Shown here: positions 50,941-55,930 of the stretch, one piece after another | Position numbering within the stretch: the stretch's first letter is position 1 | Layout of the letters: every line of letters starts with the position of its first letter | DNA from: Ignavibacteriota bacterium | Lineage (GTDB): Bacteria > Bacteroidota > Ignavibacteria > UBA10030 > UBA6906 | NCBI GenBank assembly: GCA_963801355.1 | Contig: CAWDEM010000004.1 | Coordinates: forward strand, 1,280,001-1,344,000 | Length of the DNA: 64,000 nt | Direction: 5' to 3' | Notes under the pieces: model-generated | Seen by the model: only the letters and a program-made list of their open reading frames with translations | Told to the model about the DNA's origin: nothing | Database searches by the model: none | Translations under genes and position numbers: made by a program

Positions 50941-51528
50941 CTATTTCTTCCGTGTCGTCTTCTTTGCCGGTTTTTTCGCCTTGGGCGGCTTCGCCTCTTT
51001 CGGTGGGGGTGTTTCCTTCTTTGTGACGAGCACCTTCCCGAGTTCTGCCTTCAATTTTTCGTAAGAGGCAAAGCGCTCGGTGAAGGCGATCTTCCCGTCT
51101 GAGCGGAGGACGATGATTCTCGGGAGCTTGACGATTTCGTAACTGGAAATGACGTCCGAATCCCGTCCGTACAGCACGGTATAGGGAAGCTTAAAGCTCT
51201 GTGCGTCGGCCTCCACACGACCGCGCATGTCGATCGGGTTGATCGAAAGAATCGAGACGTTTTTGTATTCACTCCAGATCTTTTTGAGAGGCGGAAACTC
51301 CGCCTGGCATTCCCTTCACTTCGACTTCCAGAAATGAAGAATCACTACGCTCTTGCCCGCGTAACTCTGCAGCGTGACGTTCTTGCCCGTTCCCACTGCC
51401 GGCAGGCTGAAGGCCGGCGCTTTGACGCCCGGTGCCAATCCTTCCCCGGCAAAGAGCATGTGTGCGCAGATCGTGAATACGGTAATGGCAAGTATGGTTG
51501 CTGAGCGTCTCATAGATTCCCGGGTCAT
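50941..51528 (-). CDS. TlpA/AhpC-TSA-like thioredoxin-fold selenoprotein (UxxC), exported; 195 aa, Sec at TGA 51316-51318
   Basis: ORFs 51316..51528 and 50941..51228 are in frame: ...VILHFWKSK-TGA-RECQAEFPPLKKIWSEYKNVSILSINPIDMRG... U aligns with the first Cys of WCxxC. Alternative start 51513. Confidence 0.88.
51289..51305 (-). promoter_or_regulatory. SECIS-like hairpin AGGCGGA-GTT-TCCGCCT
   Basis: 7-bp stem starting 10 nt after the UGA; G-first apical loop. Confidence 0.7.
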
Positions 51529-53822
51529 TTGAGGAGGACCATGCGTTGTGCAAGCATCGTTGTTCCACTGGAGAAGCGGCAGATATATACCCCGGAGCTC
51601 AGCCCCGATGCATCGAACCGGAACCTGTGGTACCCGGCAGACAGTACCTCGTTCGCCAGAGAGGTGATCTCCCGGCCGAGAGCATCAAAGATTGTCAAAC
51701 GGCATAGTGTTTGTACCGGCACGCCGATCTCAATGGTTGTCGTGGGGTTGAAAGGATTCGGATAGTTCTGACGCATGACAAATGTCTCCGGCAGACCTTC
51801 TGCGCGGTCCCGCACGGCGGCAGAACCCGAGAGGTTCAAGCGGTACACACCGCTTCCCTCCGTGCCCGCGTAGAGACGCCTGTTCGTCCGGTCGTACGCC
51901 AGACATGTCGCCCGCACATTGCCGAGGCCGTTGGAAAAGTTGTTCCAGTTCTTCCCCCTGTCTGTGCTCCGCCACACACCACTTGCTGCCCCGGCATAGT
52001 AGATCCCGCTGCTGTCGGGATTGCAGAGCAGCGTGTATGCGTACATATAGCCGGCCGGCACAGTCCAGCTTGAACCGGCGTCGGTGCTTGTATACACGCC
52101 ATTGTTTGTCGTTGCCGCAAGCACGTTTACATTGAAGGGATCGATGACGATTTTCGTGATTGATTCATACTGCTTGCCGAAGGTACTGCTCCCGATCTGA
52201 TTCCACGTGCTTCCGGCATTGGTTGACTTGTATATCCTGCTGTAGGTTGGCCACGTGCTGCCGGAGGCATACACTCCTCCACCGGCATACATGATATTTG
52301 TATTGCTGGCTTGAATAGCCAGGGTCTGCACCTCACCCCCGGCGGTGTCCAAAGCGATGCGCGTCCAGTGTGTTCCGTCGTCTGTCGATTGGTAGACAGC
52401 CATATGGGATGGCTCGGTCGTGCTTGCGGGATTGAGCTTTCCACTGCCACCCTGGTACAATACTGACCCCAGAGCTACGACATAACCGTTATCCATGGAA
52501 TCGTCGAGAGTTATCCAAGTGGACCCGCCACTTGTGCTCCTGAGGAGCGCCGATGTGCCTCACCCACCGCCTTCAAAGGCGTACAGACGCTCCGGGTTGA
52601 CGGGAGAGATGAAGACGTCTGTGACGTTTTCGCATGAATAGAAATCCGGCAGTCTGCTCCACGTTACCGTGGATTGGGTAGCTCCGCTGGTTTTGAAGAC
52701 TCCGCTGTAATTGATCCCTGCGTACATGATCGTGGGTGACGACGGAGCGCACACAAGAGCGGTGACCATAGTGCCATTCAATCCCGTGCTCGTCTGCCTC
52801 CATGATGCACCGGCATTGGATGATCGGAACACTCCTGTTCTGTTGCCGATGAACACGCACGCAGGGGTCGATCCTTCAACGACCAATGGGTCCACGCCGC
52901 TGCCGACAATGCCGCTACTGGAGGTAGTGTCCCAGGTGGCCCCGCCGTCGGTGCTCTTATAGACGCCATAGCTGTACGTCGAGGCGAACATGACGTCCGT
53001 ATTTGGCAGGTAAAATGCAAGCTTCTCGGGCGCCGGGACGTACACTCCAGTCCACGAACTGCCGCCGTTGCTGCTCCTGTAGATTCCCGCTCCGGAGGCG
53101 ACGAAGATCTTTCCTCCGCCGCCCGGGTCGACAAGGATGTCATTCACCATGCCCGGTAGTGTTCCCGTGATGTCACCGAAGACCGAACCGCCGTCTGTAC
53201 TCTTGAAAATCCGGCCATAGATATACGAACCAATAACAACATATCCCCCTGCATAAACGTGTTGGGTGTTCGTTGGATCAACCGCGACAGCGTATCCGTA
53301 GCCGGTTCCGCTCGCAAGCGTGCGTACGGTCCAGTCCGTTCCGCTGTTCGTCGTCCGAAAGTAGGCAAAGGACGATATGGACCCGTCGTAGAAGTAGCCG
53401 GACAGATGGAATGTGGACGGGCTCGCTGGATCCCGCGCCAGATCCTGCGCATAGCAGTTGGTGGGAAGGTTTATCGAGGTCCACGTCCCTCCGCCGTCGG
53501 TGCTGGAGAAGAGAATGGAGTAGGCAACACCATAGACACGTGATGGATTGGAGGGATCCACTTCGAGCATTTGAGGTGTTGAAGGAATGGTCGCTGTGGC
53601 GAACCAATGTTCGCCGTGATCCGTTGTCTTCCACCCGTTCCCCGGATAACTCTGTGTTGCAGCATATAATATACTGGTGTTTGAACGTGACTGCGCGAGT
53701 GCAGTTATGTATCCTCCTTCAGGGCCGACGGATTCCCATCCGGGGGTCTGTCCCGCCATCTCTGGAGGACCCAGCATGACAGGTATCGTCAGACACACCA
53801 GAAACAGCAAATGAGTTTTCAT
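51525..53822 (-). CDS. T9SS-secreted Asp-box beta-propeller protein, candidate selenoprotein; 765 aa, TGA at 52560-52562 (codon 421)
   Basis: ORF 52560..53822 (signal peptide) and ORF 51525..52496 (CTD) join in frame through ...LYAFEGGG-TGA-GTSALLRSTSGGSTWITLDDS-MDNGY..., restoring an intact Asp-box blade. Confidence 0.78.
52517..52548 (-). promoter_or_regulatory. Candidate SECIS hairpins (GCTCC-TCA-GGAGC; AAGTGG-CGGGT-CCACTT)
   Basis: Two short stems starting 11 and 26 nt after the UGA; less canonical than the others. Confidence 0.4.
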
Positions 53823-53862
53823 GCGGACCTCTGCTTGATTGTGCCCACCCGCCTCCGGGTGA

Positions 53863-54663: not shown

Positions 54664-55692
54664 CTAGAATGCATAGACAGCTCCAAGCATGTAGGTGTTC
54701 ATCTGGACACCAAGATTGCTGGCATAGTAACGGTATTTTGTGTAGAGCAGCCAGACAGCGGACATTTCACGGTTCAACTGAACGCTGAATGCCCGTGACC
54801 GCATGTTGTCCGGAATGATGATGCCTTCTTCACCCAGGCTCACATTGTCGCTCTTGTTCTGATATAGACGGAATTTCACCCAGAGGGTCGTCGCCCAGTT
54901 CAGGTACTGAGCGACTTCCAGAGCCGGGGCGAGCGAAGAAATCCCCATGGAGTTCGTGTACCAGCGGAGCGAAAGATGCACGGCGGTCTGGGTCGGCAGG
55001 AACTGGGAAAGCCAGACGCTGACGTTGTGTGAATTGAATGAAAACAGATCTCCATTTGCGTTATAGTACACGTATTCCGCCTGGACCGCCGTGGAAAGTG
55101 TCAGGACCTGGCGCGCCTTGAGGCGGAGATTGATTGTACCCATTTTCCCGCCCACCGGACCGGCGTCGGCACCGCGAAAGTAGAACTGGATATCGCCCTG
55201 CACAGAAGTGAGAGCGCTCATATCCCACAGTGCTCCGGTACCGGCTTGAAAGGCCGCAAAGCCACGGGAGTCATATTGAAACTGCGTTGCTGCGATTCCG
55301 ACGACGGTTGAACTCAAGTTCCGGGTATACTTGATCTCGGCCAGGTGCTGCGCTACGTCTTCCTTGATGTCAGAGTACTGGTACTTCACCCCGAGTTGAG
55401 CTGCTTTGCCGACAAGGCGTGTGTATTTGATGAGTGCCCGCTTCTCGGGGAAGTTCGCGATGTACGGCAAGTTCTGCTGGTAACCGGACACGCCGTAGTT
55501 GTAGATGATCGGCTCGGGGTATTCGTACTCCCCATAATCGGCGTATTGAAGCTCAACTTTGAGCTTGCTCTTCAGCTCAAACGAGTCGTCGTAACCCTGT
55601 GAGTAAAGGGACGAAGACACGAGGGCAAGCGCCGGGAGGATGATGGCGACGTGGTACCTGCAGAGCCTATGAATATGTCTCACCTGAGACAT
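54664..55692 (-). CDS. Outer-membrane beta-barrel protein (DUF3570-like context)
   Basis: Signal peptide from ATG 55692 (MSQVR...SSSLYSQG); alternating Tyr-rich strands; C-terminal LGAVYAF. Confidence 0.75.
   Translation of the reverse strand: MSQVRHIHRLCRYHVAIILPALALVSSSLYSQGYDDSFELKSKLKVELQYADYGEYEYPEPIIYNYGVSGYQQNLPYIANFPEKRALIKYTRLVGKAAQLGVKYQYSDIKEDVAQHLAEIKYTRNLSSTVVGIAATQFQYDSRGFAAFQAGTGALWDMSALTSVQGDIQFYFRGADAGPVGGKMGTINLRLKARQVLTLSTAVQAEYVYYNANGDLFSFNSHNVSVWLSQFLPTQTAVHLSLRWYTNSMGISSLAPALEVAQYLNWATTLWVKFRLYQNKSDNVSLGEEGIIIPDNMRSRAFSVQLNREMSAVWLLYTKYRYYASNLGVQMNTYMLGAVYAF
55675..55692 (-). promoter_or_regulatory. SECIS-like hairpin ATGTCTC-AGGT-GAGACAT overlapping the barrel start codon
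   Basis: Perfect 7-bp stem starting 10 nt after UGA 55703-55705; AGGT apex as in the selD hairpin. Confidence 0.72.
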
Positions 55693-55696
55693 GGCC

Positions 55697-55930
55697 CTAC
55701 CCTCAGGTAGGGCAGGCCGCAGCCTCCCCGACGGCGCCGGTACCGTTCTCGATTTGCGAGATATCTTCGTCATTGTCCTGCAGGTTTTTCATGATCGCGC
55801 AATTGACGCGGCTTTCCATCTGCAGCGACTGACGTGACGATACACAGCTGGTGAGAAACGAGGAAAAAAGGAGGGAAATGACGATGAGAAGAATTGGACT
55901 GATGGTGTGTGATTCCCTGCCGCGAGCCAT
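55697..55930 (-). CDS. Small lipoprotein, candidate selenoprotein with C-terminal CPTUG (77 aa)
   Basis: SD AAGGGGAG, lipobox LTSC, ends GAVGEAAACPT-TGA-GGG-TAG. Confidence 0.75.

Follow-up and report, generated by a model that had tools for sequence, protein, structure and literature searches.

A five-gene operon of an Ignavibacteriota bacterium with four in-frame TGA codons as a candidate selenium-based counterpart of the flavin-based DUF3570 clusters

Closest described systems and organization of the operon

The closest described counterpart of the operon reported here is a flavin-based type of gene cluster that combines DsbD and ApbE with DUF3570, DUF4266 and a thioredoxin-like protein (Meheust et al., eLife 2021; PMC8238504). 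According to the passages of that paper devoted to these clusters, the DUF3570 protein is flavinylated at two [S/T]GA[S/T] motifs, and NapH-like transmembrane electron-transfer proteins are also named for flavinylation-associated clusters. Selenoproteins of related kinds have been described as well: Table 1 of a 2026 AEM review (PMC13188914) contains Prx-like, TlpA-like and redoxin thiol:disulfide oxidoreductases with selenocysteine (Sec, U) in a UxxC motif, and passages of the same review and of the Haft and Gwadz preprint describe C-terminal Sec in the KCU-star, UXX-star and SaoC (Cys-Sec-COOH) proteins. We have analysed a stretch of 64,000 nucleotides, hereafter the window, from the genome of an Ignavibacteriota bacterium (GCA_963801355.1, contig CAWDEM010000004.1, positions 1,280,001 to 1,344,000). 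It carries on its minus strand an operon of five genes that encode a small lipoprotein (g1), an outer-membrane barrel (g2), two TlpA/ResA-like proteins (g3 and g5) and a double propeller with a tail for type IX secretion (T9SS) (g4). Positions given below refer to the window unless a contig or locus is named.

The five genes are tightly packed within 55930..50941, with intergenic gaps of 4, 12 and 40 nt and an ATGA overlap common to g4 and g5, and the ORF listing together with the translations bears out the operon that a previous sequence-only reading of this DNA had described (Table 1). Under translation table 11, g1, g3, g4 and g5 are each cut by one TGA (55703, 54199, 52560, and 51316, respectively). 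When TGA is translated as Sec, these genes yield products of 77 aa (CPTUG), 262 aa (TUMDC), 765 aa (EGGGUG), and 195 aa (KUREC). The in-frame TGAs are exactly those listed in the sequence-only reading, with the frame open and the homology continuing past each of them, and its statement that standard gene calling shreds the operon agrees with the database proteins, which stop at the TGA. Because gene callers cut the genes at the TGA, the public annotation is wrong at dozens of loci.

All four TGAs of the operon are almost certainly Sec codons, and we are highly confident that their products are true selenoproteins forming one conserved system. We regard this system as a conserved module for selenoprotein-based redox chemistry in the cell envelope, inherited together with the Sec machinery. 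The operon resembles the DUF3570/DUF4266-type module in its working, while being a member of neither Pfam family, and we describe it as a flavin-free, selenium-based variant of the DUF3570-type cluster with secreted selenoproteins. The DUF3570/DUF4266 envelope module would have a flavin-free, selenium-dependent form, which gives a second handle on the role of this poorly understood module.

The promoter proposed upstream of g1 fared less well. Both hexamers and the spacer are present, but the -10 hexamer matches the consensus at only three of six positions, for which reason the site is unlisted in the sigma-70 consensus scan, and promoter-like sites are not enriched in the region (4 found vs 3.0 expected).

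Decoding of the in-frame TGA codons

The genes selA, selB, selC (tRNA-Sec) and selD all lie within at most ~11 kb of the operon (5-11 kb away). The nearby selC and Sec-containing SelD, noticed earlier in the sequence alone, were recovered as a tRNA-Sec by both ARAGORN and Rfam and as a selD gene with an in-frame TGA, and selA and selB, whose presence in the genome had been named beforehand as a check, were both found just past the end of the window.

Conservation of the TGAs was scored by aligning the window proteins with tblastn to 39 related loci and recording the codon aligned to each Sec. Thirty-eight of these loci come from named records of metagenome-assembled genomes (MAGs) and one from a relative genome; the MAG records are labelled Bacteroidota, Ignavibacteria(ota), Calditrichaeota, KSB1, Zixiibacteriota, LCP-89, and others. 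TGA occupies the aligned codon in 42 of the 43 matches of g3 (38/39 loci), in all 27 matches of g5 (26 loci), and in the seven g4 homologs that span the site (7/7). The sole g3 match without TGA is a tandem paralog in locus L017, where the alignment is off by one residue and the protein itself has G-U-G-G-C. The two g3-type genes of this locus (L017:3455-4255 and 4270-5202) stand in tandem, the first with G-U-G-G-C in place of T-U-x-x-C.

In g1, CPT-TGA is kept in 34 of 38 related loci, and the codons that follow are informative. In the window and nine close relatives (L014 and 8 of the 38 loci), GGN-TAG comes next after the TGA, and in 24 of 25 distant loci a stop codon stands directly after it (TAA or TAG in 19, TGA in 5), compared with 7 of 173 ordinary TGA-terminated ORFs of the same loci. 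A stop codon directly after the TGA makes sense only if the TGA is read. A profile search of 1.84 billion protein representatives recovered 19 relatives of g1, of which 17 were fetched: 12 end in ...CPT, two in ...CYS or ...CAT, and three are fragments. Since the database relatives end at ...CPT, their gene calls have been cut at the TGA.

The sequence-only reading had suggested looking for a Cys aligned to each U. We have looked for it in the 39 loci and in the database relatives and found none: there is no Cys at the Sec sites of g3, g4, and g5 in any of the 39 loci, and no Cys form appeared either among the lipoprotein representatives (19 relatives, 17 fetched) or in the propeller search. 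Generic TlpA proteins, according to the Pfam models, have Cys at the corresponding position of the fold. Trp, Arg or Gly at these sites had been named as a finding that would speak against Sec; the homologs keep the TGA, and one database match to g5 has W. This protein (P0152, a JGI gene call, 57% identical) is the only close full-length database homolog of g5, and its W at the Sec site and its W-rich C-terminal extension probably stem from a contig translated with TGA as Trp. In addition, short contigs from four metagenome runs cover all four TGA sites and show no difference there among the differences listed, which is at most weak backing for the view that the TGAs are not assembly errors.

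A hairpin lies 3' of each of the four TGAs, as the sequence-only reading had noticed, and it is backed by compensatory changes in g3, g4, and g5 and by counts against controls in g1. The hairpins of g3 and g5 lie inside the coding region at a fixed distance after the UGA. The evidence in g4 is weaker than in the other genes, and its hairpins overlap a conserved protein motif. In g1 the Sec is the last or penultimate residue, and therefore a Sec insertion sequence (SECIS) hairpin must sit past the stop codon. A perfect stem of at least 6 bp starting 9-24 nt after the UGA was found there in 26 of 34 sequences, with 18 distinct stems, whereas shuffled sequences gave a mean of 2.4 (maximum 8) and ordinary TGA stops 20 of 171. 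MAFFT/RNAalifold returned no consensus structure for the region downstream of g1, because the hairpins are out of register between sequences, and the evidence for g1 is thus the per-sequence hairpin count with its controls. An Rfam scan of positions 50000-62000 matched only the tRNA-Sec and no bacterial SECIS family. By eye we also observed a 6-bp hairpin, CACCCG-GAGG-CGGGTG (53846-53861, minus strand), 4 nt past the TGA stop of g3; it is too near the stop to resemble the other hairpins and may influence the translation of g4.

Products of the operon compared with known families

The g1 product has the lipobox LTSC, a mature part of about 49 aa, and the tail C-P-T-U-G, and it matched no Pfam or NCBIfam model (NCBIfam at E<=0.1). 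Mammalian thioredoxin reductase ends in a comparable way, with Gly-Cys-Sec-Gly. Compared with KCU-star, UXX-star, and SaoC, as presented in the passages cited above, g1 has in common the terminal or penultimate Sec, a Cys...Sec redox or metal-binding motif, and a small exported protein as its carrier; it differs in the C-P-T-U motif, the lipid anchor, the lack of an NCBIfam match, and the invariable pairing with a barrel gene. With DUF4266 it shares its size, the lipobox and lipid anchor, a Gly-rich segment before the tail, and the position upstream of the barrel gene, whereas DUF4266 ends in a CXC tail (...GGGGCGCN) instead of CPTU(G). Membership of g1 in DUF4266 (PF14086) was rejected, given 0 matches among 29 sequences at E<=1 and no DUF4266 protein among the profile matches in the 1.84 billion representatives. 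An hhalign comparison of the g1 family with DUF4266 reached 58% over 39 columns, mostly in the signal peptide.

The g2 product has a signal peptide and 16 predicted strands (AlphaFold2, AF2; pLDDT 81, pTM 0.72), and its Foldseek matches are barrels of the PgaA, PelB, OmpG, and OprD type. We have found 106 homologs of this barrel. The mature part contains no Cys and no [ST]GA[ST] motif. The window protein has no Pfam match at E<=0.1, and the search of its genome with PF12094 (DUF3570) gave 0 matches. Across the barrel family, 18 of 34 members match PF12094 weakly (best E 5.3e-6), and hhalign of the family against canonical DUF3570 reached 89% (E 2.3e-6 over 146 columns). Strict membership of g2 in DUF3570 was rejected, as it lies below the PF12094 cut-off and lacks the pair of flavinylation motifs. 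The most conserved stretch of the barrel, residues 45-85 (~55440-55560, minus strand), is rich in Tyr, Glu, and Pro (K-x-E-x-QY-x-DY...P...FPE-x-R) and is also the part with the lowest AF2 confidence (pLDDT 36-54). It may be a plug or a partner-binding loop. A predicted complex of the window barrel with the g1 lipoprotein scored 0.03, which counts neither way.

Canonical DUF3570 occurs in 43 of 201 genomes of this phylum, the window genome not being among them. In the 14 canonical loci that were fetched, every barrel has at least two flavinylation motifs and a lipoprotein ending in ...GGGGCGCN is encoded directly upstream in 10. The known DUF3570 barrel has two sites flavinylated by ApbE. In the family described here, any [S/T]GA[S/T] motif is present in only 1 of 34 members (two or more motifs in 14/14 canonical barrels), and no ApbE is encoded in the genome, whose completeness is 100%. 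What the operon has in common with the DUF3570/DUF4266 clusters is the small Cys-tailed lipoprotein directly upstream of the barrel, the thioredoxin-fold protein beside it, the remotely homologous barrel, and an inner-membrane electron-transfer protein alongside. Here, however, the redoxins use Sec, the membrane partner is NapH-like and not DsbD, and T9SS-secreted selenoproteins have been added. The comparison with a DUF4266/DUF3570-type module that had been drawn from the sequence is sustained by the gene order and by the remote kinship of the barrels, but not by any DUF4266 match or flavinylation motif.

The thioredoxin-fold UxxC proteins recognized in the sequence-only reading score above the Pfam cut-offs (26 for AhpC-TSA, PF00578; 26.6 for Redoxin, PF08534), with 54.6 and 33.9 bits for g3 and 60 and 45.5 bits for g5. 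Both have the TlpA/ResA-like thioredoxin fold with Sec at the first position of the CxxC motif (UMDC in g3, UREC in g5). In addition, g3 contains an extra N-terminal domain of ~90 aa, for which the PEGA label proposed earlier found no Pfam match at E<=0.1. In a comparison of homolog N-termini, one Cys behind the signal peptide proved invariant, with G-[DK]-x-P next to it, and g3 is a probable lipoprotein; a canonical lipobox pattern was matched in only 14 of 32 homologs. Like the UxxC selenoproteins in the relevant passages of the AEM review, g3 and g5 have an AhpC-TSA/Redoxin fold, Sec as the first residue of CxxC, and a SECIS-like hairpin within the gene. They differ from them in that no Cys form was found in the g3 (38) and g5 (26) groups, whose copies in the loci all have TGA, and in the extra domain and post-signal Cys of g3. 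None of the named NCBIfam selenoprotein models was reached by either protein. The C-terminus of g5 (50941-51030, minus strand) is a Lys/Pro-rich tail (KKETPPPKEAKPPKAKKPAKKTTRKK).

The g4 product combines a signal peptide, tandem BNR/Sortilin propellers (AF2 pLDDT 80.9), and a T9SS type A C-terminal domain. This tail (residues 687-762) exceeds the cut-offs of TIGR04183 (32.2 bits, cut-off 23) and PF18962 (32.1 bits, cut-off 27), and it is the only export signal of the operon that was scored by a model. The claim that all the products are exported is borne out by score for the T9SS tail of g4; the signal peptides, that of g4 included, and the other export signals were judged by eye. Foldseek matched g4 to GH74 xyloglucanases (TM 0.55-0.57, 18-20% identity); the sequence alignments with GH74 are out of register among the repeats, and the NCBIfam model F510_1955 gave 174.5 against a cut-off of 175. 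With the tandem seven-bladed propellers of the GH74 xyloglucanase type, g4 shares this fold match and the BNR/Sortilin repeats, to which the T9SS type A tail is added; unlike them, it has a Cys397/Sec421 pair that is invariant in an 8-sequence alignment. Sec421 belongs to an EGGGUG insertion, which the distant BNR proteins used for comparison lack. From secondary structure and blade topology, not from coordinates, Cys397 and Sec421 would be placed in loops on the same face of one blade.

A second, unrelated fold of T9SS selenoproteins was found in other loci. FG-GAP proteins of ~430-530 aa with a T9SS tail carry an in-frame TGA in the motif G-U-C-x-G-[AS]-[YF]-P-Q, always as U and never as C, in 11 genes of seven loci (L033, L034, L035, L036 with four tandem copies, L038, L039, and L049), and variants occur at L042:5053-6615 and L044:4459-6048. 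T9SS selenoproteins of the two folds stand beside the core genes in at least 14 of the 39 loci. In the window, two divergent genes between the operon and the tRNA-Sec also encode T9SS-tailed proteins, both without an in-frame TGA: a BNR/Sortilin propeller of 717 aa (56231-58384, plus strand) and a protein of 693 aa with no other Pfam domain (58397-60478, plus strand).

The operon looks undescribed in the literature that we have found, in agreement with what the sequence-only reading had supposed; a few of its genes might appear in the supplements to the papers on deep-Sep and BSepDB. Our searches nowhere found Sec paired with DUF3570, the supplementary list of DUF3570 clusters in PMC8238504 being a place that might include Sec-type loci, and nothing relevant pairs a selenoprotein with type IX secretion. 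The relevant passages of the DUF4266/DUF3570 literature mention no selenium, and the words T9SS, propeller, FG-GAP, and lipoprotein are absent from the 2026 prokaryotic selenoproteome review (PMC13188914). For the LCP-89 genome B3_LCP, which holds one of our loci (L028), the deep-Sep paper reports, in the part that covers it, four known selenoproteins and no new ones; the same part concedes that a selenoprotein lacking Cys homologs may escape detection. Up to three families of selenoproteins, those of the CPTU lipoprotein, of the GH74-like propeller, and of the FG-GAP proteins with T9SS tails, were not found in print, and they include predicted secreted or surface selenoproteins. As these families showed no Cys counterpart, homology-based selenoprotein finders miss them.

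Genomic context, proposed function and rival explanations

To describe the context, we clustered the ORFs of the 39 loci and of the window region. One order recurs: it starts with sel genes and a pair of HGD-D and BcrAD genes, continues with T9SS proteins, the lipoprotein, the barrel, g3, sometimes the propeller, and g5, and ends with a 784-aa protein and selA. The conservation of the five-gene order, proposed earlier as a check, holds for the core, i.e., lipoprotein-barrel-g3-g5, which recurs with or without the propeller in MAGs labelled Bacteroidota, Ignavibacteria, Calditrichaeota, KSB1, Zixiibacteriota, and LCP-89, but not for the propeller, which is found in only 7 of 39 loci. Counting the window, selD lies within 7 kb of the barrel gene in 13 of 40 loci; selB is present in about 10 loci and selA in 7. 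The 784-aa protein, encoded after g5 in 17 loci, is a fusion of a GltD-like part (Fer4_20 and Pyr_redox_2) with a NapH-like Fer4_5 membrane domain, and the stand-alone NapH-like protein of the window genome is 50% identical to its membrane half. As in the flavinylation-associated clusters, in the terms of the passages of PMC8238504 that name NapH, a polytopic Fer4_5 membrane protein is encoded together with extracytosolic redox proteins. Here, however, it is fused to the GltD-like domain in 17 loci and stands beside selenoproteins and sel genes instead of ApbE substrates.

The distribution was determined in 61 genomes, namely that of the window and those of 60 relatives belonging to the same order. 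The barrel is present in two of them, the window genome (G000) and G007, and selA is above the cut-off in the same two; the completeness of G007 is only 61%, and related genomes are not independent of one another. This result fits a history in which the operon and the Sec trait were gained or lost jointly, and the coincidence of selA and operon in the same two of 61 genomes suggests that the Sec trait and its main client operon travel together.

Reducing equivalents could be carried by four parts of the system: the CxxU tail, both UxxC redoxins, the Cys/Sec centres of the exported proteins, and the NapH-like protein, whether or not it has the NAD(P)H/FAD domain. We infer from them an envelope reductive relay that serves exported selenoproteins, for which the chances seem to us about even. 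In such a relay, reducing equivalents would enter the periplasm via the NapH-like membrane iron-sulfur protein, and electrons would reach the lipoprotein's CxxU tail through the two TlpA-like proteins, by selenol/thiol-selenenylsulfide exchange. The barrel, because it has no flavin sites, Cys, or haem motifs, would be a conduit or dock for the lipoprotein tail and not an electron carrier. The relay might keep Cys397/Sec421 of the surface propeller reduced or pass electrons through it to an extracellular oxidised substrate, and in other lineages the FG-GAP T9SS selenoproteins would replace the propeller. Only tentatively do we put forward a bolder version: a first selenium-based electron/selenol relay across a bacterial outer membrane, in which the C-terminal Cys-x-x-Sec arm of a lipid-anchored peptide, working through a flavin-free DUF3570-like barrel, would power surface T9SS propeller selenoenzymes, the whole forming a "selenium island" that moves with the Sec genes and is the reason why the Sec trait is kept.

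Several points weigh against the relay. It is built on sequence and structural models; among the public sequencing runs no RNA run with this DNA is listed, and the DNA shares are small (<=0.10). The barrel is without a redox-active residue or cofactor motif, and the passage of electrons through it is pure inference. The lipoprotein shows no recognisable signal for surface export, and its homology to DUF4266 is not established. Loci L022, L023, and L024 carry the barrel and redoxins with no lipoprotein in the stretch covered; they may represent a variant without the CPTU lipoprotein, or the lipoprotein may be encoded elsewhere. The propeller, being present in only a minority of the loci, is no core part. 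Finally, the NapH-like gene of the window genome lies ~11 kb off, in the sel operon, and lacks the fused NAD(P)H domain, and the electrons could come instead from a protein of the DsbD type encoded at another site. In L022, L023, and L024, we observed selD directly upstream of the barrel gene.

The main rival explanation, which we consider rather unlikely, confines the chemistry to the periplasm: the barrel would admit an oxidised small substrate (organic disulfide, polysulfide, or peroxide) that the CxxU lipoprotein and the UxxC redoxins reduce, and the propellers would be merely co-regulated. In its favour, the barrel has no Cys, flavin, or haem motif and resembles the wide monomeric channels PgaA, PelB, OmpG, and OprD, the propeller is missing from most loci, and UxxC selenoproteins of the TlpA-like and Prx-like types are already known from the periplasm, according to the relevant part of the AEM review (PMC13188914). 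Against this, chance is unlikely to have placed T9SS selenoproteins of two unrelated folds next to the core genes in at least 14 of the 39 loci, and the canonical relatives of the barrel, in the passages of PMC8238504 on these clusters, are electron carriers and not solute channels.

It is less probable, and in our opinion quite unlikely, that the system acquires and traffics selenium or, more broadly, chalcogens, with surface and periplasmic Sec/Cys centres passing selenium inward to SelD. This would explain the linkage to sel and HGD-D/BcrAD genes, since sel genes adjoin the operon in many loci, the HGD-D/BcrAD pair stands between selB and selD in 6-7 of them, and only two of 61 relatives have the operon, these same two having the Sec trait. 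The same linkage is, however, equally expected if the operon is the main Sec client travelling with the machinery; moreover, selenium uptake that depends on four selenoproteins faces a bootstrapping problem, and the core contains no transporter for selenium species. Still more improbable is a role in handling soft metals or metalloids, in which the CxxU, UxxC, and U-C centres would bind or detoxify Hg, As, Cu, or similar elements at the surface and in the periplasm. The FG-GAP proteins do carry a U-C dyad, and CU/UC and C-terminal Cys/Sec motifs occur in mercury/organometal selenoproteins described in passages of the Haft and Gwadz preprint, but no mer, ars, or cop genes or efflux pump were seen among the clustered genes of the loci, and the thioredoxin folds and the NAD(P)H-linked membrane protein point to a turnover of reducing equivalents, not to binding.

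A reading of the TGAs as normal stop codons, lesions of pseudogenes, or errors of assembly, which would leave nine fragments in place of five genes, is practically excluded: database gene calls do end at these TGAs, and the W of P0152 could be taken for a sense codon (although a call with TGA as Trp fits better), but the same codon recurs in dozens of independent assemblies from several phyla with the homology continuing, hairpins with compensatory changes come after the TGAs, stops follow the lipoprotein TGA directly, the adjacent Sec machinery is complete, and U occupies the catalytic position of a CxxC redoxin.

The coordinates of the operon, its candidate recoding elements, and the associated genes are collected in Table 1.

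Table 1. Features of the operon and of the neighbouring selenium and redox genes (positions in the window, except those prefixed G000:C4 or L053).
Feature	Position	Strand	Remarks
g1, small lipoprotein selenoprotein	55697..55930 (alternative GTG start 55936)	-	Sec codon TGA 55703-55705, CPT-U-G then TAG
g1 candidate SECIS, ATGTCTC-AGGT-GAGACAT	55675..55692	-	13 nt past UGA, beyond g1 stop, covers g2 start codon
g2, outer-membrane barrel	54664..55692	-	AF2 model, Foldseek, 106 homologs
g3, exported TlpA/ResA-like protein	53863..54651	-	Sec codon 54199-54201, T-U-M-D-C
g3 hairpin, ATTGCA..CAGACGG-AGTTG-CCGTCTG..TGCAAT	54162..54194	-	3/5 consensus pairs compensatory, 37 sequences
g4, double propeller with T9SS tail	51525..53822	-	Sec codon 52560-52562, EGGG-U-G
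g4, two conserved hairpins	52516..52548	-	14-46 nt after UGA; 3/11 consensus pairs compensatory, 8 sequences
g5, exported TlpA/ResA-like redoxin	50941..51528	-	Sec codon 51316-51318, K-U-R-E-C
g5 hairpin, AGGCGG-AGTTT-CCGCCT	51289..51305	-	3/6 consensus pairs compensatory, 27 sequences
Promoter-like TTGACA (56009-56004), 17-nt spacer, TAACTT (55986-55981)	55981..56009	-	Upstream of g1; weak
tRNA-Sec (selC)	60667..60765	-	ARAGORN; Rfam RF01852 67.9 bits, E 1.9e-12
selD, selenophosphate synthetase	60826..61872 (or 60952-61872)	-	TIGR00476 320.7 bits; one in-frame TGA
BcrAD/BadFG-type ATPase	61914-62732	-	Pfam; between selD and selB
HGD-D-like protein (2-hydroxyglutaryl-CoA dehydratase D-like)	62716-63996	-	Pfam; between selD and selB
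selB	G000:C4:1344017-1345882	-	Just beyond window end; same minus-strand run as selA
selA	G000:C4:1345920-1347278	-	Beyond window end; same run as selB
Stand-alone NapH-like polytopic 4Fe-4S protein	G000:C4:1347322-1348137 (L053:1438-2556)	-	Past window end; directly upstream of selA

The GC content between 52 and 60 kb of the window is slightly low (0.553-0.565 vs 0.572-0.595), with no clear sign of recent transfer. The BcrAD and HGD-D-like genes (61914-63996) belong to the same minus-strand run as selB, selA, and the NapH-like gene. A pair of this type was also observed beside sel genes in 6-7 related loci (L016, L017, L022, L027, L033, L034, L035), and it might be an ATP-driven low-potential reductase tied to selenium metabolism.

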